A stretch of DNA of 64,000 nucleotides, from positions 1,760,001-1,824,000 of the forward strand of contig OY970280.1 of assembly GCA_963715865.1 (NCBI GenBank), read 5' to 3'. Below, one piece after another: positions 26,183 to 33,982 of the stretch; position 1 is the first letter of the stretch, and every line of letters starts with the position of its first letter. A program made the translations under genes and the position numbers. A model generated the notes under the pieces. It made no database searches. It was not told the origin of the DNA and saw only the letters and a program-made list of their open reading frames with translations. This DNA is from Candidatus Bathyarchaeota archaeon. Its GTDB lineage: Archaea; Thermoproteota; Bathyarchaeia; Bathyarchaeales; Bathycorpusculaceae.

Positions 26183-27367
26183 TTAATGGTCGATTAGGCT
26201 TTGGGCGCTTTTTAAGAGTGGAACCGCCACGTTAAAGCCTGTTGCGAGTCGAGTGTTCTCCCAGAATTCTGGGCAGGAATTCGACTCATGAAAGACTAAG
26301 GCGCTCTTATTTTTTTCTACGCTTTCTTCAATTATGTTTTTAATATTTTCGTAATGCTTACTGTTCACATAGCCGTGGAACGCTGTTTCTAATTTGCTGT
26401 TCCATGCTGGGAAGTCAGTTAGGCGTGTTTCATCCTGCTTAACTTTTTGAACAGGCACAAACGCTTGCGCTGCCTTATCAAGTTCAGCTTTAAGGTAAGC
26501 GTCGTCCACTGTCTTGTTTTCTTTAACGTTTACCATGGCATCTAAAGCTAAAATCCATGCTTCACTGCCTTTGCCAAGAGTTTTGCCACATTTCACCGCT
26601 AACTCCTGAACGCTTAGGGGTAATTTGGCGCCGAAAACCAAGTTGCCCAAGAAAGTGTTTGTTCTGAAATCCTTAAAGCCGGCTCTTGCCATTGCAATGT
26701 GATAGCAAGCGGGTTGTTTACCTTTCTCTTTGGAAACGATTATTCTTAAATCGTAAAACCATTTTTCGACTAATTCCTGCGCGACTATGCCGACAGGGTT
26801 AATTATTGAGGGTTTTGTTTCTTGGATGTTAGCGATTAGCTCTTCATGGTTTTTTGCAAGCATAATCATTTTGCCATGTGTCCCAGCGTCAGCTTTAATC
26901 ACTATGCCTTCCGAAAGGGGGATTTCTTGTTGAAATAGTTCTGCTATGTCTTTTTCGTTATGGATTTCTTGCCCATTTTTCATTGTGTCCGCTGAGTCGC
27001 AAGGGACGTAAACTGTTTTGGGAATCGGTATGCCTTCTTTCCAAAGATGCAGTAATGTACGTAGTTTGCTGTAGCAGACGAATTCGATTTGAGAAGAATT
27101 TAATGTTTTTTTGCCAAGCATTTCCATGATATATGAGGCTTGAAGGCGACGGTTTTTGCTTTGCGCACGATTAAGCACGACAGCGGTATCTTTGATTATG
27201 CTTGTGTAGTCTTTGCCTTTGGTTTTAGCGCTGAAACCATCTTTGGAAATAGATAAAGCGATTTTTCGGAATGGCAAAAAAGTTAAATCTATTCCCAATT
27301 GCTGTGCAGTTAGTTTTATTCCGTTTTCGTCGTTTTCAGACCGTTCATACAAAAGTGCTATGCTCAT
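26183..27367 (-). CDS. lysX: Divergent RimK/LysX-family ATP-grasp ligase (LysW ligase by context) with a large insertion
   Basis: Recognisable ATP-grasp elements (VLNRA, GIPIPKT, IKADAGTHG, QELVEK..YDLRI, FRTNTFLG, D276, ExN in HESNSCPEF); position directly after lysW. 394 aa versus roughly 280 for typical LysX. Confidence 0.75.
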   Translation of the reverse strand: MSIALLYERSENDENGIKLTAQQLGIDLTFLPFRKIALSISKDGFSAKTKGKDYTSIIKDTAVVLNRAQSKNRRLQASYIMEMLGKKTLNSSQIEFVCYSKLRTLLHLWKEGIPIPKTVYVPCDSADTMKNGQEIHNEKDIAELFQQEIPLSEGIVIKADAGTHGKMIMLAKNHEELIANIQETKPSIINPVGIVAQELVEKWFYDLRIIVSKEKGKQPACYHIAMARAGFKDFRTNTFLGNLVFGAKLPLSVQELAVKCGKTLGKGSEAWILALDAMVNVKENKTVDDAYLKAELDKAAQAFVPVQKVKQDETRLTDFPAWNSKLETAFHGYVNSKHYENIKNIIEESVEKNKSALVFHESNSCPEFWENTRLATGFNVAVPLLKSAQSLIDH

Positions 27368-27437
27368 CGCTTATCTGCTTCCATCAAAAATTTTTTTAAA
27401 AAACTGATTTAAATAAAGGCTTTTTAGTAAATACTGT

Positions 27438-27656
27438 TTATTCGCCCCAGTCTTCTCCTTCAATCGTTAATTCTTGAAGGTCTACGCATCCGCCTTTCAC
27501 TTGTTTAACTTCTAGTTCCAGTCCGCAGCCCGGGCAACTTAGGATTTCTCCTTTTTCTGTGTCTGCTGGAACATCAAGCTCTGCGTCGCAGTCAGGGCAT
27601 CTTGCCTTGTTTATAGCCTTCACCTCTTGAGGGTTTGAGTTTGCTTGTTTAATCAT
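27438..27656 (-). CDS. lysW: Amino-group carrier protein LysW (start may be the ATA at 27614)
   Basis: CPDC and CPGC zinc ribbon, acidic composition, C-terminal EDWGE signature. Confidence 0.97.
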   Translation of the reverse strand: MIKQANSNPQEVKAINKARCPDCDAELDVPADTEKGEILSCPGCGLELEVKQVKGGCVDLQELTIEGEDWGE

Positions 27657-27916: not shown

Positions 27917-28327
27917 ATGGACGAGAAAGATAAGCAAATAATCGAAATCCTAAAAGATGACGGCAGAGCAGGCTACGGCGAAATAGGCGCTAAAATCGGA
28001 TTATCTGAAGGCGCTGTGCGGAAAAGAATCAAAACTTTAACCGACGAAGGAGTAATTCGCAAATTCACTGTTAAAATCAGCCTAGCAGAAGGCGCCCAAG
28101 CCATAACTTTGCTAACAGCAAACCCAGCCTTTCCAACTCAGGAAGTCTCCAAGAAAATCCAAACAATCCCAAACGTTGAAACAACCTATGAAGTCAGCGG
28201 CGAATATGACATCGTGGCAGTCATCAGCGGAATGAACATGACAGAAGTTAACGAGTGCATAGAGAAAATTCGCATGGTAGAAGGCATCGTGAAAACCAAC
28301 ACAATGATAGTCCTAAGAAGTTCATGA
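27917..28327 (+). CDS. Lrp/AsnC-family regulator (LysM-like), divergent from lysW
   Basis: MDEKDKQIIEILKDDGR...GLSEGAVRKRIK HTH and a RAM domain (EVSGEYDI). Confidence 0.9.
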   Translation: MDEKDKQIIEILKDDGRAGYGEIGAKIGLSEGAVRKRIKTLTDEGVIRKFTVKISLAEGAQAITLLTANPAFPTQEVSKKIQTIPNVETTYEVSGEYDIVAVISGMNMTEVNECIEKIRMVEGIVKTNTMIVLRSS

Positions 28328-28565
28328 CATTTAACGTAGACTCAACCGCATCAGAATTGCTCTCACTTACTCTGTAGTTGCTTTATCAAGCTTCTGCCAC
28401 TTGCTGCCTAATTCTAAAGCAAATATCCTTCATAGTTTTGTAAATATAAATTGTGCCTTTTTGGCGTAGCCTGTTTAAGTGTTGCACAGATGCTCAAGAT
28501 ATATTATTAAGTCGTAATGTTTAATACACCAAGCATGACTACGTAACAATAACATAGTGACAAAA

Positions 28566-29044
28566 TTGAACAACGGGAAAAAATCAGGGAAACTGCTCAT
28601 CGTTGCAAAGTACTAACAATAGTAGCATTAGCCTCAGTTCTAGTAGTCTTCGCTGCCATCCTCGGAACATTTCATGGAAGCTCAGTAACAGTAACCGATG
28701 TTGCACAAGGAACAGTCGAATACAGCCCTGACGGAAGCACGTGGGATACAAGCATGTCAGCATTCAATGTAAACGGCGGCTCGTGGTATGCGAGATTTGT
28801 TGTAAGCAGCACCACCTATATTGGAAGTGCAACTGTAACTTTCCAACTTGAAAAGCAAAACACAGATAGCTCATGGTCACCTACTGGCGCACCTGTAATA
28901 ATAAGCGATTTTGATTTAACTGGAGCAAGTCAAATTATCTATGCGTCAAACGACGGGCTTGTTACAAGCCAGAATCATGACTGGAGCGGCGACATCAGTA
29001 CTGGAGGAAACTACAGAATTACCGTAACTGTTGCTTCAGTGTAA
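28566..29044 (+). pseudogene. Secreted beta-rich protein interrupted by a 1-nt deletion near 28607-28609
   Basis: TTG at 28566, preceded by GTGA, gives MNNGKKSGKLLIVAKY*. The shifted frame continues VLTIVALASVLVVFAAILGTFHGSSVTV into the listed 28754-29044 ORF. Total length 479 nt = 160 codons minus 1 nt. Confidence 0.7.
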
Positions 29045-29089
29045 TATTGATGCTGAATCAACAAATTTTTTTAACAAATAACACCCAAT

Positions 29090-29686
29090 TTGCTTTCAGG
29101 GATACTCGTGATTCCATATGCAGACGAAATAGTCACCGCCATAACCATCATAGGAATCGGCGCAATTCTGGCTATTTACCTATCAATACTTAAAAAGAAC
29201 GGTTGGATAGGAAAACCTTCCAACTACAGATGCCCAAACCCTCAATGCCAAAAAATTTTCCAAACACCTTTAAAAGTCAAAGATTTTTCAAACAAAAAAA
29301 ATGTCCACCTCGCATGCCCTGAATGCGGATACGATTTAGGATCTTCAAATGACGAAACAATAAAGGAACTAAACATTGAGAACACGTCACAATCAAAAAT
29401 AAATCCAACCTCAGAACCAATTGAAACTAAAGTCTCAGTCACAACTAATGCCAACAAAGAACCTAAAGCAATCGAAAGCCCCTCTCCAACTATTGAACTA
29501 AAGGAAAGTACGAGTCTTCCAGAAACAAACCATAAACTAACCCCAAAACAAAAAACGGACAACTACAAAAAAGACAGGCCTACAGGATGTAACCATCATT
29601 TCGGTTACTTAGGGACTCTTCCAAAAGGTACAGAAACTCCGGATGAATGTTACTCTTGCGCCAGATTAATTGAATGTTTTAAATAA
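29090..29686 (+). CDS. Membrane-anchored zinc-ribbon protein with a C-terminal Cys/His motif
   Basis: TM helix, CPNPQC and CPEC pairs, low-complexity linker, C-terminal CNHHFGYL...ECYSCARLIEC. Confidence 0.75.
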   Translation: MLSGILVIPYADEIVTAITIIGIGAILAIYLSILKKNGWIGKPSNYRCPNPQCQKIFQTPLKVKDFSNKKNVHLACPECGYDLGSSNDETIKELNIENTSQSKINPTSEPIETKVSVTTNANKEPKAIESPSPTIELKESTSLPETNHKLTPKQKTDNYKKDRPTGCNHHFGYLGTLPKGTETPDECYSCARLIECFK

Positions 29687-29691
29687 CCAAT

Positions 29692-29718
29692 GGATTAAAT
29701 TTTAGTCCCAAACCCAAA
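29692..29718. repeat. Site A: 17-bp quasi-palindromic core GGATTAAATTTTAGTCC plus arm CAAACCCAAA
   Basis: 27-bp exact match to 31311-31337; core also present at 30328-30344. Confidence 0.9.
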
Positions 29719-29720
29719 CT

Positions 29721-29783
29721 ACGACTCTAACACTTACACACCAAACACTCACGACTCTAACACTCACTACGCAAAACTACGCA
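29721..29783. repeat. Short phased direct repeats (ACGACTCTAACACT x2, 30-bp period; ACTACGCA x2, 10-bp period)
   Basis: Copies at 29721-29734 and 29751-29764, and at 29766-29773 and 29776-29783, in a strongly G-poor top strand. Confidence 0.8.
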
Positions 29784-29965
29784 CGACCTTGAACCTAAGT
29801 CTTAAATCTGCATAACGGTAGAACTACATTCGCGCGCTGGCTTGTCCCGAAATTGAAAAGCTTATTTTGAGAAGAGGGGTCTCGTATCAAATGAGCGCGC
29901 GCGCTTAATTTTTCTAGGTGAAGCTACACCCAGACAGGTAATTTGCTCCTTTTTTCGTGCTTTGC

Positions 29966-30082
29966 TCATTTAACGATGCATTTTGGTACTGGAACAGCAG
30001 CACCATAAGATTTTTCTAGTGCTTTTCTGCATTTTTCAGCAAATTCATGGTTAAGATTTTGGGCATATTCTTGATTTATCAT
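29966..30082 (-). CDS. Small hypothetical protein (38 aa)
   Basis: MINQEYAQNLNHEFAEKCRKALEKSYGAAVPVPKCIVK*, with GAGGA 5 nt upstream of the ATG. Confidence 0.4.
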   Translation of the reverse strand: MINQEYAQNLNHEFAEKCRKALEKSYGAAVPVPKCIVK

Positions 30083-30099
30083 TTTATTCCTCGATAATT

Positions 30100-30210
30100 T
30101 TAACTCTCATTCGCCCAAAAGCACTCTGAATACTTGTGCTTAACTTCTGGGCCTTTCTGCCAAATCTTGTCATAACCTGCGATAAAGTCTTTGCTTGATG
30201 TTTTCCTCAC
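30100..30210 (-). CDS. Small hypothetical protein (36 aa)
   Basis: GTG start; MRKTSSKDFIAGYDKIWQKGPEVKHKYSECFWANES*; in tandem with 29966-30082. Confidence 0.3.
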   Translation of the reverse strand: MRKTSSKDFIAGYDKIWQKGPEVKHKYSECFWANES

Positions 30211-30316
30211 TGTTATACCAACCAATAGTATTAACACTAAAGATTCAATATATAATCTTCATTACCAAATCAGAATATATCAAAAAACGATATGCCAGAA
30301 AAGAAGCGTGAATCGG

Positions 30317-30351
30317 TTTGGGTTTGGGGATTAAATTTTAGTCCAACCAAC
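30317..30351. repeat. Site B: arm TTTGGGTTTGG + core GGATTAAATTTTAGTCC + arm AACCAAC
   Basis: Core is in the same orientation as sites A and C. The left arm is the reverse complement of the A/C right arm; the right arm is the reverse complement of the C left arm. Confidence 0.9.
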
Positions 30352-30445
30352 GTACTTTTCCTTTAAGGAAAATAATATTGTAAGTTTACCGCATCATAAT
30401 CTAATTGAGAAAAGGTGTTAAGTAAAAAATTAGATTTACTATTTT

Positions 30446-30955
30446 TTAAGCAACGATTATGTAGTAGATGGACGAACAGCCTTCTGACGACAGAAGTCTG
30501 ATTTGATAAGTGTTACCAACTGTTATACCGCCTGTCAAAGTCAAAATCAAACTTATGTTAGAATTTGTTGGTATTGCTATGTCTTTTTCAAGGTTTAATG
30601 GATAGTCGTTGACATAGACATCAGTAATTGCAAGGTCAGATGAACCGCTGTTAAGGACTGAAACCAAGAATGTGCCTGCACTTGCATTTACTTGTACGTT
30701 TGTTATAGTTAACTTGTCAGTGTTAGGTGAGAGAGAAGGGCTGGGGATATTAACGCTATATGGCATAGGGGAAGGAGTAGCAGTAACAGAAGGCGTAGGA
30801 GAAGGAATAGTGCTGCTTAAAGTCTTGGGAGAGGGGCTGGCAACGGTGGTTGCATTTTGAGCGAAAGATTGGGATACCAACATACCCAATACTAAACTAT
30901 TCAAAATAACAGCAATCGTAATCAAAATGATTAAGGTCAGGTAATTTTTACTCAT
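30446..30955 (-). CDS. Membrane-anchored/secreted protein with a Ser/Pro/Thr linker and a C-terminal Ig/pilin-like beta domain
   Basis: N-terminal hydrophobic helix, SP/TP repeats, then KLTITNVQV...VSVLNSGSSDLAITDVYVN. Confidence 0.7.
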   Translation of the reverse strand: MSKNYLTLIILITIAVILNSLVLGMLVSQSFAQNATTVASPSPKTLSSTIPSPTPSVTATPSPMPYSVNIPSPSLSPNTDKLTITNVQVNASAGTFLVSVLNSGSSDLAITDVYVNDYPLNLEKDIAIPTNSNISLILTLTGGITVGNTYQIRLLSSEGCSSIYYIIVA

Positions 30956-31303
30956 GTTCCTTACTCATCGAATCACTCTCGTTAATCCAACTGTTTATTA
31001 ATTATGAATTTAGAGTAATTACTCCTAATAACTAACGAAAATCGCAAGAACAATCTAAGAAAAAAATAGTGTTACATAAGTGATAAAACGGTAGTATTCT
31101 AAGAAAGATTTAATCATTATTTGAATTCTAATTCCTTACTTGATTACCGTATACTCGATTCCGACTATACCTATATACGTACCCTATATTGACTTGATTT
31201 CTAGGTACTAGCCTCTTTTCCTGCTATGGAACCTCTGTATATGCTGAATCCTGTATACTGCCTTGATTAAGTCTTTCCAGAAGGTCATGCTGAGTAGTTT
31301 TTG

Positions 31304-31337
31304 GTTGGTTGGATTAAATTTTAGTCCCAAACCCAAA
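31304..31337. repeat. Site C: arm GTTGGTT + core GGATTAAATTTTAGTCC + arm CAAACCCAAA
   Basis: Read directly from the sequence; see sites A and B. Confidence 0.9.
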
Positions 31338-31482
31338 TTTCCCTAAATACTTTGTATTTTACCATCCTTATGTTAGCATTACAGTTCTTGAATTTGTACA
31401 TGCGTTGAACAGAGAGCACAGAAAAAAAGAAACCAATAACATTTATTAATACTTACTACACCCTTTTATTGGGCTAAGAAAA

Positions 31483-32124
31483 ATGAATGAAAAGGTACAA
31501 GAAAGCGCCCAGTACTTGAAATGCTGCGCCAATCTAGAAATCGAAGCTTTTAGGCTTTATGAAACTTTTTCTAAGAAAATCAACCAGCCTGAAAACGGCT
31601 TTATCTTAGGTTTCGCTTATGACAGCCTAAAATGCGCCAAAATCATTCAAGGAATACTCGATTATGTAGATATGCCTGAAACAGAAAAAACGAGCCCCAA
31701 AAAGAACTTCTCAGAAGTAACCAACAGCGTTTCAGCCTTTACAAAAAAAATTTCTAAAATCAACAACGTAGACTACGAAATTTCCTGCGAAATACTAAAA
31801 GAACTCAGCAACCTAGAAGACCAACTCAGCGAGGCATACACGAATTACCTCCAATCTGGCGCAATTAAAACAATAGCCGACGAATTCTCAAAGCTAGCAA
31901 TAAACTTAACTAACTTCAAGAAACTGTTTGAAACCTTTATAGAACAAAAACAAAAACACAAAGAAACTATCCTCGAAATCATATGCTACTTTGAAACTAG
32001 AGAAACAGAAAGACTAAGGCATGCAACACCTATAGTCAAATACCAAAACCCAGATTCATGGATTCTCGAATCAACCCTTCACGCCTTCTCAACTGCACCA
32101 GTCAAAGAGAACACTGAACCGTAA
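31483..32124 (+). CDS. Ferritin-like/rubrerythrin-like helical bundle protein
   Basis: Two related helical halves (CANLE..A..LY / LSNLE....EAY) with an ExxH-like motif (EQKQKH). Confidence 0.55.
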   Translation: MNEKVQESAQYLKCCANLEIEAFRLYETFSKKINQPENGFILGFAYDSLKCAKIIQGILDYVDMPETEKTSPKKNFSEVTNSVSAFTKKISKINNVDYEISCEILKELSNLEDQLSEAYTNYLQSGAIKTIADEFSKLAINLTNFKKLFETFIEQKQKHKETILEIICYFETRETERLRHATPIVKYQNPDSWILESTLHAFSTAPVKENTEP

Positions 32125-32137
32125 CGTTCCAATCACT

Positions 32138-32530
32138 CTAAGCACCTATTGTTAGTTCTTTAACCCTGCGCTCAATTTCATCCCTGATTTCTCGTACCTT
32201 ATCTATCGATTTGCCTTTAGGGTCTTCAAGCGCCCAATCAAGAGTATCCTTAAAGAAGGGACCAGGACAAAGGTCAGCAGCTCCACAGCCCATAGTGACA
32301 ATCAAGTCGGCTTTGTTTGCCATTTCCTGAGTGAGCAGTTTGGGCTTGTTCATAGATATGTCGATACCCTTTTCCTTCATGGCTTCCACTACAACCGGAT
32401 TCACTTTGGGGGCTAATTTTATCCCTGCACTCTGTGCAGTTAGTTTTCCTTGGCCATACTTGTTGACGAAAGCTTCAGCCATTTGGCTTCTGCCAGCATT
32501 CTCAACACAGACAAAAAGGACTCTTTTCAC
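32138..32530 (-). CDS. arsC: Arsenate reductase, LMW-PTP/thioredoxin type (copy 1)
   Basis: P-loop CVENAGRS, TMGC..xxxxCP redox pair, WALEDPKG. Confidence 0.9.
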   Translation of the reverse strand: MKRVLFVCVENAGRSQMAEAFVNKYGQGKLTAQSAGIKLAPKVNPVVVEAMKEKGIDISMNKPKLLTQEMANKADLIVTMGCGAADLCPGPFFKDTLDWALEDPKGKSIDKVREIRDEIERRVKELTIGA

Positions 32531-32635
32531 GTTTGAAGTTCACCTATTCTATATTCTTTCTTTGTAGACGCTAAGCATTAGGTCTTTCGCAGGTTTTTAA
32601 TGTCTTGTGTGTTTCTTTTTTCACGTTTTCGGCAC

Positions 32636-33982
32636 TTAGCTTTGCTCACGCGAATAGTGTTTTCTGCGTCTAAGTATCATCGCTATGGCGGCGATTACTG
32701 CGACAGCGATTGTAGCAGCTATTGGGTAAATGATTTCTGCTGGAAAAGACAGCGCTGGCTGAGTTGCCGGCGAAGGCGTGGGCGCTGTCAGCGGGGTGCC
32801 CAACGCGTAAACGTTGTGGTCCCACGAACCCACATAAACGCAGCCGCCCGAAACAGCTGGAGAAGAATTCACATGACTTCGGGTGGTGTACGTCCATACG
32901 TTTGCTCCAGTTAATGCGTTCAGGCAGTAGACGTTGCCATCCCAACCTCCCACGTAAACGTAGCCGCCGGCGACCGCAGGAGACGAATTCACCCCGTCTT
33001 GAGTGGTGTAGTTCCAGATTTTCGCTCCAGTTAACGCATTGAGACAGTAAACGTTTTTGTCCGGCTCCTCAGACTCCCCGGTCCCAACGTAAACGTATCC
33101 GTTGGCAACTGCGGGGGAAGAGTCAACCCAACCTTGAGTTGTGTAGTTCCATATTTTTGCTCCAGTTGAGGCGTTGAGGCAATATACGTTATAGTCTTCA
33201 GACCCAATGTAGACATAGCCACCGACAACTGCTGGGGAAGACTCCACCAGTTTCCCAGTTGTATAGTTCCATATTTTGTCGCCGGTTAACGCATCAAGAC
33301 AGTAGACGTTCCTGTCTGCTGATGCAATGTAAACATGGCCGCCGACGACGGCTGGAGAAGACTCTACAAGGCCTCCCGTTGTATAGTTCCATATTTTGTT
33401 TCCTGTCGCTGCGTCAAGGCAGTAGACGTTTCCATCCCACGAACCCACATAAACATAGCCATTAGCAACCGCGGGGCAAGACTCCACAGTATTTCCAGTT
33501 GTGAAATTCCACACTTTATCGCCTGTTGAAGCGTTCAGGCAATACACGTTGCGGTCGTAACATCCAAAGTAGACATAGCCATTAGCAACCGCCATTGAAG
33601 AACTTATTGCTGGGCCTCCTGCGCCTTGAAGCCCTCGGGTTGTGGCATGGATTGTGAAATTCCATATTTCGGATCCGTCTGACGCGTTAAGACAGTAAGC
33701 GATTCCGCCGTCAGAGCCTATATAGACGCGGCCATCAACGATTGCAGGCGAAGCCCCAACTACGCTATTGGTCGTATAGTTCCATAGTAAAGTGTCGTAA
33801 GTTGCAGTTGGTGTGCTGGTTGAGTAGCCTGCGTGAGTTAGATCATGATGAAACATTGGCCAATCATCCGAGGAAGAATTAGCATATGCAAGCGAGGCTG
33901 GAGACAATACGAGACAGAAAAACGCTGATGAGGTCAAAACAAAGGTGACGAAAATGATCAGGGCATGGTTAGATTTTTTCAT
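32636..33982 (-). CDS. PQQ-binding-like beta-propeller repeat surface protein
   Basis: Signal peptide, WPMFHHD, about eight 40-aa repeats (SSPAVxxGYVYxGSxDxNVYCLNAxTGxKIWNYTT), C-terminal TM helix with an RRRK tail. Confidence 0.9.
   Translation of the reverse strand: MKKSNHALIIFVTFVLTSSAFFCLVLSPASLAYANSSSDDWPMFHHDLTHAGYSTSTPTATYDTLLWNYTTNSVVGASPAIVDGRVYIGSDGGIAYCLNASDGSEIWNFTIHATTRGLQGAGGPAISSSMAVANGYVYFGCYDRNVYCLNASTGDKVWNFTTGNTVESCPAVANGYVYVGSWDGNVYCLDAATGNKIWNYTTGGLVESSPAVVGGHVYIASADRNVYCLDALTGDKIWNYTTGKLVESSPAVVGGYVYIGSEDYNVYCLNASTGAKIWNYTTQGWVDSSPAVANGYVYVGTGESEEPDKNVYCLNALTGAKIWNYTTQDGVNSSPAVAGGYVYVGGWDGNVYCLNALTGANVWTYTTRSHVNSSPAVSGGCVYVGSWDHNVYALGTPLTAPTPSPATQPALSFPAEIIYPIAATIAVAVIAAIAMILRRRKHYSREQS

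Follow-up and report, generated by a model that had tools for sequence, protein, structure and literature searches.

Organisation of the core array

The DNA analysed here (the window) is a stretch of 64,000 nucleotides from a Candidatus Bathyarchaeota archaeon, comprising positions 1,760,001 to 1,824,000 of contig OY970280.1. The source genome, labelled G000, is a single 2.35-Mb contig with a GC content of 42.8%; related genomes carry labels of the same form (G071, G041, G018, G046, G106, G012 and others). The window contains three exact copies of the 17-mer GGATTAAATTTTAGTCC, here called cores A (29692–29708), B (30328–30344) and C (31311–31327), all of which lie on the + strand. GGATTAAATTTTAGTCC is one version of a palindrome of 8-1-8 geometry, GGAYTAAAWTTTARTCC. 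On balance, we consider this palindrome to be the probable point of crossover in an exchange system by which small accessory DNA modules are reshuffled within the chromosomes of Bathyarchaeia. At up to three mismatches, the window holds no further matches to GGATTAAATTTTAGTCC save the reverse-strand self-matches of the three sites, while 0.31 matches are expected by chance in shuffled sequences and none of 100 shuffles reaches six. The exact search and the shuffles therefore agree with an earlier sequence-only reading of this DNA, which had reported three cores in the same orientation and no other copy in the window. The rest of the genome contains one more exact copy (genome position 666798) and about seven degenerate ones, giving approximately 11 copies in all.

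The left chromosomal flank of the array is a conserved zinc-ribbon-type open reading frame (ORF) of 198 aa (29090–29686, + strand), which is kept in G071, G012 and G081. Core A begins 6 nt past its stop codon, and its left half overlies a pre-existing pseudo-half-site. The end of the ORF in G071 (AAA AAC TAA ATTTTT) aligns in frame with ATG GAT TAA ATTTTA in G000; AAC TAA ATTTTT thereby corresponds to the left half and centre of core A, and so looks like a pseudo-site. Simple-sequence arms adjoin the cores elsewhere in the array. The right arm of core A is CAAACCCAAAC, core B has GGTTTGGGTTTGG as its left arm and AACCAAC as its right arm, and core C lies between GGTTGGTT and CAAACCCAAA. Cores A and C have 27 identical bases in common. 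The arms had been described in the sequence-only reading, from which the inverted inner arms of segments A–B and B–C, the spacings of 636 bp (A–B) and 983 bp (B–C) and the gene in B–C all stand; the left side of A (ACCAAT) does not, being the 3′-end of the conserved gene and not an arm.

Segment A–B begins with a unit (29709–29800, + strand) comprising a (CCCAAA)-type arm (29709–29719) followed by a G-poor tract, within which are two ACGACTCTAACAC iterons (29721–29733 and 29751–29763). A homologue of this unit with four to five iterons heads a core in G018 (C12; 88% identity over 65 nt). The iterons stand about 30 nt apart in such G-poor tracts, with two copies here and four to five in G018 (L016, about 549–640), and could be candidate binding sites of an accessory protein. 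Further right is a predicted hairpin (29831–29914, + strand) with a GCGCGC...GCGCGCGCGC clamp, followed by a T-run. The remainder of the segment is a module (29969–30327, − strand) with two small ORFs (30100–30237 and 29972–30085), neither of which has a Pfam or NCBIfam match, and it closes in the GT arm GGTTTGGGTTTGG (30315–30327). This module is 95% identical to a stretch of G018 (C10:2715–3075) that lies in an unrelated context, while the flanking genes are 78–85% identical, with homology up to the first base of core B.

Core B joins this (CCCAAA)-armed module on its left to an (AACC)-armed segment on its right (right arm, 30345–30351). The cargo gene of segment B–C (30446–30955, − strand) encodes a pilin-like surface protein of 169 aa with an N-terminal hydrophobic segment and a Ser/Thr/Pro linker. 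Its likeness to pilins is weak: the match to the NCBIfam UpsA pilin (E = 0.0097) falls short of the cut-off, and no Pfam family was matched. The segment ends in a non-coding unit of about 180 bp (31148–31310, − strand) that belongs to a family designated family 1. This unit contains a second palindrome, pal2 (31149–31170; GTATACTCGATTCCGACTATAC), followed by conserved blocks and a (GGTT)n arm (31298–31310). Together with core C, it is found again in G041 (C132; 82% identity), with homology ending at the core. Beyond core C, the right arm CAAACCCAAA and a stub of about 33 nt (31328–31370, + strand) precede the point at which synteny with G071 and G041 picks up (about 31371–31391). The right chromosomal flank is a gene for a rubrerythrin-like protein of 213 aa (31483–32124, + strand), which has its own conserved promoter region. 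In most relatives, this gene is located 40–250 bp from an Lrp gene (27917–28327 in the window).

Distribution of the core, its arms and the adjoining units

The GGAYTAAAWTTTARTCC pattern is found in 35 of 101 same-genus Bathyarchaeia genomes, in which the core is kept while its flanks vary, at 1–13 copies per genome. A reversed control pattern is found in one genome. The pattern also occurs in many other metagenome-assembled genomes (MAGs) of Bathyarchaeia. An assembly or amplification chimera, which the sequence-only reading had named as grounds for rejecting its proposal, can be discounted because G000 is a single contig and dozens of independent assemblies contain the motif. Viral contigs yielded 115 pattern matches, nearly all of them armless; a possible Bathyarchaeia-related contig (L044) carries an (AACC) arm.

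Almost all sites with at least one arm are intergenic (107 of 113), and the genes neighbouring the 113 sites point toward the core in 69 cases and away from it in 67. The arms consist of simple sequence that is GT-rich 5′ of the core and CA-rich 3′ of it, such that the arm, read outward, lacks G on most half-cores. The commonest types are (AACC)n (28 arms), (AAACCC)n (23) and (AC)n (10), and CT, CCT and CGA repeats occur too. Arms are present on both sides in 20 of 92 armed sites, far above the frequency expected from random insertion, and single-armed sites still hold a near-complete far half-core. Across more than 100 sites, these few arm types appear in every left-right combination, each travelling with its adjoining unit. 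The swapped arms are consequently not a special attL/attR signature of the window locus, as had been proposed from the sequence alone. Palindromic sites of the predicted parental type, with matching arms, are nevertheless present in other genomes. Where the core itself departs from symmetry, with T at position 4 and G at position 14, adjacent cores have the same orientation in five of five pairs, in agreement with the related proposal that the core stays direct while its arms invert.

The type of arm goes with the family of the adjoining DNA. (AACC)n heads the family-1 unit of about 185 bp that closes in pal2; at least 14 members of this family were found in several genomes, each starting at a core, and the pal2 hairpin is the only part of their consensus RNA fold that is supported. 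A unit made up of GGGGTAA...TTACCCC hairpins has (CA)n at its head, and G-poor tracts containing ACGAC iterons, such as that on the right of core A, have (CCCAAA)n. Since arm type tracks the adjoining unit family, a half-core and its arm appear to belong to the DNA on their own side.

Further details of two of these unit families were observed. A family-2 unit to the left of core 223081 (genome 222830–223060) consists of three tandem hairpins, GAGGGGTAA(N20–25)TTACCCCTC, and occurs in at least seven other genomes, with a (CA)n arm and a core at its head every time. The pal2 palindrome (GTATAGTCGGAATCGAGTATAC) was noted at 31149–31170 in the window, at genome positions 667512 and 222808, and at about 4540 in L191. 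It closes every family-1 unit and also coincides with homology breakpoints: where G041 has a complete family-1 unit, G000 has a family-2 unit preceded by only the first 21 nt of pal2, and L191 switches units at the centre of pal2. Judging from these positions, pal2 may be a partner recombination site.

Segments between neighbouring cores were collected as a non-redundant set of 61, using spacings of 100–2500 bp. Their median length is 825 bp. About 50 of them carry a single ORF, on either strand, which occupies 20–91% of the segment. The cargo includes a GNAT acetyltransferase, a LysE transporter, methyltransferases, an epimerase, a flavin reductase, a nitroreductase and a PIN protein, along with secreted beta-helix and PQQ-like proteins, pilin-like proteins and unknowns. 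Inner arms are of the same type in seven of 15 scorable segments, compared with an expectation of about 28%, so that inverted inner arms are a tendency and not a rule. The idea of a gene-cassette capture system, advanced in the earlier reading, holds insofar as cores bound small gene modules in mostly one-gene arrays with no adjacent recombinase; its other part, a recombinase tied to the cores, found no counterpart.

Cores as homology boundaries between relatives

To locate breakpoints of homology, 600-bp intervals centred on 113 distinct sites were compared with G000 and with loci from about 60 other genomes. Homologous stretches of at least 70 nt were retained, near-identical self-matches were removed, and a stretch was scored as crossing when it covered at least 40 nt on each side of the core centre. 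Only two of 234 homologous stretches cross the core, whereas 37–61 span control points placed 60–200 nt to either side; as the database consists of core-centred loci of different species, these counts show that the two sides are not co-inherited, and are not in themselves evidence of the way in which the joining took place. The inner ends of these stretches cluster at the core's outer edges.

Sister genomes with flanks that are 93–98% identical have units or whole one-gene cassettes swapped, added or missing exactly at cores in at least five loci. At the IPK locus, a core is located 48 nt upstream of the isopentenyl-phosphate-kinase (IPK) gene in G000, G046, G106 and G018. An imperfect right half-core, TTTAATTA, and the flank beyond it are common to these four genomes, while on the left G000 has a (GT)n unit, G046 a family-1 unit, and both G106 and G018 a C-poor tract. 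In G071, the IPK gene of which is 95% identical to that of G000, only a right half-site (TTTAATCG) is present, and in G041, G098 and others the locus has no core.

Downstream of grpE there is one core in G000, four within 2 kb in G071 and two in G041. A cassette of 650 bp at this locus (cassette Z), with a single gene of 136 aa, is 94.7% identical between G071 and G041. Its homology runs from inside one core to inside the next, the outer sides are unrelated, and synteny with G000 returns further on. Cassette Z has its own BRE/TATA-like element (BRE, transcription factor B recognition element), ACGAA-TTTATTTAA, between the core and the start codon.

At genome position 666798, G071 matches G000 at 97% identity along the left flank as far as the core, where the right half-core changes from AGTCC (G000) to AATCT (G071), the arm and unit differ too, and G071 has approximately 3 kb of extra DNA with another core. 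At genome position 223081, G041 has 97% identity to G000 across the core and right flank, and the interval from pal2 to the core is occupied by a family-2 unit in G000 and a family-1 unit in G041. Because half-cores follow their own flanks in relatives, the crossover would fall in the central AT-rich bases. The expectation that variation between related genomes would map to the core is thus borne out by these four loci and by the breakpoint test. As judged from these genome comparisons, the cores are sharp homology boundaries at which modules have been swapped, added or lost between close relatives.

A separate observation was made at the IPK locus. The last 30 nt or so before the IPK start (GGGCTTTTGTGTT...ATG.TTTCA) are repeated before a PQQ-like gene inserted upstream (genome 133715–133745 and 135195–135225). 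It seems that the PQQ-like insert captured the IPK leader or made a second copy of it.

Proposed mechanism and alternative explanations

In the mechanism that we propose, a half-core and its simple-sequence arm would be a property of the DNA on their own side. Breakage and rejoining in the AT-rich centre could link any two half-core ends, or one such end to a look-alike half-site in the chromosome, and repeated events would build up hot-spot arrays of 0.2–2.5-kb, mostly single-gene segments. The window would then hold one such array, with two segments between the 198-aa ORF and the rubrerythrin-like gene. We infer that a site-specific recombinase, acting as a dimer and encoded elsewhere, catalyses the exchange. 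The most natural guess is a tyrosine recombinase that would bind the GGAYT/ARTCC half-sites, with an overlap of approximately 7 bp (AAAWTTT).

Several results weigh against an exchange system of this kind, beginning with the search for its enzyme. No recombinase family is recurrent within 4 kb of the 113 sites; when the proteins encoded there were clustered, the recurrent ones were limited to secreted beta-helix and PQQ-like proteins, with no enzyme among them. None of the nine PF00589 matches in G000 adjoins a core, and G000, which is 97.9% complete, contains no Y1 transposase (PF01797), TnpB (PF07282) or telomere resolvase. Among the 101 genus genomes, serine recombinases occur in 15 and do not track the cores. 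A family of 433-aa integrases occurs in 86 of these genomes, and the tyrosine integrases tested belong either to near-ubiquitous paralogue families or to strain-specific ones; the 306-aa integrase of G000 has no close or conserved orthologue across the genus set. The earlier suggestion of a recombinase gene beside another copy of the core was likewise not borne out: none is recurrent, and the serine recombinases that lie near core 223081, 2.4–5 kb away together with a transcription factor B (TFB) paralogue, are rare in the genus and do not track cores. The 8-1-8 geometry with its single-base centre matches no recombinase site characterised to our knowledge, and the 17-bp repeat could also serve as microhomology for ordinary recombination.

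The window locus itself adds to these contrary results. The whole array is absent from G041 (93% identical), where the Lrp gene and the rubrerythrin-like gene are 247 bp apart, and from G071, where 31 bp separate the 198-aa ORF from the rubrerythrin-like gene. Both of these empty sites lack a core and have a pseudo-site only. On the right, the inserted block ends not at core C but about 43 bp past it, so a simple attB × attP picture fails for that end. G012 has a different insert of 3.1 kb at this locus, without a core. Of the same-strain contigs, one from JGI breaks inside core C's right arm and one from Logan does not reach core C, ending 107 nt upstream of the rubrerythrin-like gene; two metagenome scans for the C-right and A-left junctions returned no matches. 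None of the short core-bearing contigs is circular, and neither an excised circle nor an empty site nor strain polymorphism was recovered from the same-strain contigs and metagenome scans. In a 973-bp Logan contig (ERR10755942), the surface-protein gene lies at 246–755, a position that would imply a crossing of core B as in G000.

The core could alternatively be a symmetric promoter or operator with a TATA-like centre, heading small units in both directions and travelling at the 5′-end of units that are mobile by other means. Its TTAAAWTTTAA centre is indeed TATA-like, every family-1 unit and many others begin at a core, outward ORFs start at least 44 nt from the core while inward ORFs can end within 0–15 nt of it, and a TFB paralogue is found on a mobile element 3.4 kb from core 223081. 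The tRNA promoters of G000, however, read AAAGC-TTTAWATA, whereas the core has GGA or G/T-rich bases at the BRE position. Cassette genes such as that of cassette Z have their own canonical BRE/TATA between core and ATG, the rubrerythrin-like and IPK genes keep their own promoters in core-less genomes, and gene orientation around cores is unbiased (67 away, 69 toward). The TFB paralogue occurs in only three of 101 genomes, and family 1 has no supported RNA fold. Moreover, the three different units at one chromosomal half-site in the IPK locus would need site-specific joining in any case. A promoter fits these data worse than exchange does, and we consider it unlikely.

Similarly unlikely, in our estimation, is that the core is a dispersed repeat kept for another reason, such as a binding site for a chromatin or regulatory protein, with modules swapped by ordinary recombination over 17–30 bp of identity and without a dedicated recombinase. 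The lack of a cognate enzyme, the 27 identical bases in common between A and C and the position of pal2 at breakpoints would all suit this explanation. It accounts less readily for insertion beside imperfect half-sites that have only 6–10 bases in common with the core, for unrelated units that are often joined head-to-head with only the core in common, for the conserved dyad symmetry, and for the way in which each half-core stays with its own flank, by which the crossover is confined to a few bases at the centre. Least probable of the three is that the segments are non-autonomous transposons resembling MITEs (miniature transposable elements with inverted repeats), with half-core and arm as terminal inverted repeats and a transposase that favours the ends of resident copies. 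Segments A–B and B–C do have inverted ends (about 20 bp and 15 bp, respectively), and genes or fragments of IS4/IS5-type DDE transposases lie near a few cores. No target-site duplication was seen, however, and the segments are unique instead of multi-copy, with matching inner arms in only seven of the 15 scorable cases. Units of the family-1 type have a core at one end only and the other palindrome at the far end, and one-armed sites still have a near-complete far half-core. Since the enzyme was not found, ordinary recombination and a transposase are both retained as rivals to the exchange system.

Comparison with known systems

In behaviour and layout, the closest analogue appears to be the dif modules of Acinetobacter plasmids. 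Plasmid dif (pdif) modules are moved by XerC/XerD of the host, and their inner-arm types alternate between C and D modules (PMC13141974; PMC6449649). Like the segments described here, they are small modules, often with one gene or none, arranged in arrays, bounded by short dyad-symmetric sites and lacking a nearby recombinase gene, and they are swapped, added and lost at these sites between close relatives. The C/D alternation resembles that between the (CCCAAA)-armed segment A–B and the (AACC)-armed segment B–C. In contrast, dif sites are 28 bp long with an 11-6-11 layout and distinct XerC and XerD arms, whereas the sites here have 8-1-8 geometry and microsatellite arms. Here, alternation affects the arms alone and leaves the 17-mer in a single orientation; it is also not the rule, and there are many types of arm. 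The arrays are chromosomal and archaeal, and no conserved Xer-like gene was found with the one query used (the 306-aa integrase).

Integrons comprise an integrase (IntI), an attI site and an array of gene cassettes with attC sites, and have been reported in archaeal MAGs too. The arrays described here resemble them in their mostly single-gene cassettes, diverse accessory cargo and short conserved boundary sequences. Unlike integrons, they have no integron integrase or attI beside them. Their boundary is a 17-bp duplex palindrome and not a folded attC of 57–141 nt, and the arm order (GTT...core...AAC) is the reverse of that of R″/R′. Integron cassettes are mostly promoterless and in one orientation, whereas cassettes here occur in either orientation and at least some have their own promoter. 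The site, a 17-bp 8-1-8 palindrome with arms GTTGGTT...AACCAAC, thus shows neither the defining features of dif modules nor those of integrons, in agreement with the earlier observation that it fits neither the 11-6-11 layout of dif nor the RYYYAAC/GTTRRRY rule of attC.

In lambda-type attL/attR sites, identical direct cores also flank the insert, the junctions are hybrids of the two partners and look-alike secondary sites are usable; by the same analogy, iterons beside the core could be arm-type binding sites. The inserts here differ in that they are 0.2–2.5 kb long and encode no integrase, many different units are found on one core, and the symmetry of the core is nearly complete. The core resembles archaeal bidirectional BRE-TATA-BRE promoters in its symmetric, AT-rich centre, which is of about the right size, and in the units that leave it both ways. 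It differs from them in its flanking bases, which are unlike the BRE of G000, in the separate promoters of cassette genes and in the unbiased gene orientation. Palindrome elements derived from IS200/IS605 (PATE/REP) are set apart by the absence from G000 of a Y1 transposase/RAYT (PF01797) or TnpB (PF07282), and MITEs by the lack of target-site duplications and near-identical copies here, the inverted ends of A–B and B–C notwithstanding.

Significance of the core

Modules bounded by recombination sites are a known kind of element, and there is a real chance that the enzyme and mechanism here are new. It is possible, though we stop short of calling it probable, that the core represents an undescribed chromosomal gene-cassette exchange system. 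Such a system would use a 17-bp palindrome with microsatellite arms, and either a new recombinase or a known one acting on an unprecedented 8-1-8 site. It would assemble integron-like arrays of surface-protein and small-enzyme genes at hot spots, perhaps with pal2 as a partner site. Literature searches found no description of the motif, and microsatellite arms tied to the adjoining unit were not met in the described systems that these searches covered.

Bathyarchaeia are among the most abundant uncultured archaea of sediments and soils, and little is known of how they acquire and shuffle accessory genes. A short, searchable site at module boundaries offers a handle on their flexible gene pool, which is rich in secreted proteins, pilin-like proteins and small modifying enzymes. 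In metagenomes, the core could assist in finding variation at the strain level, and it directs attention to a recombination activity worth seeking and testing. If the enzyme is new, its very small symmetric site may be of interest to tool builders.

Additional features of the locus and genome

A mobile island (L367; genome 222500–232000) lies beside core 223081. It contains a DDE transposase fragment and serine recombinases of 315 aa and 533 aa, the first of which is immediately followed by a TFB (TFIIB) paralogue; close to tRNA-Pro it also encodes a tyrosine integrase of 429 aa. The pair of recombinase and TFB paralogue recurs in G075 and G112 only.

The hairpin at 29831–29914 is the genome's only alternating-GC run near any core, and alternating-GC runs, considered as a further junction motif, are not enriched near cores. 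An Rfam search of 28000–33000 returned one sub-threshold chance match only and no family for this hairpin.

The product of the 198-aa ORF to the left of core A has a membrane segment, a CPNPQC...CPECG pair resembling a zinc ribbon and, at its C-terminus, a CNHHFGYLG...PDECYSC...C motif, with no family match above threshold. The ORF is itself within a variable region and is absent from G041, G046 and G084. Further to the left, at 26183–27656 and just upstream of the Lrp-type regulator, are genes of the α-aminoadipate (AAA) lysine pathway encoding LysX (RimK-like, 394 aa) and LysW (72 aa, with a zinc ribbon).

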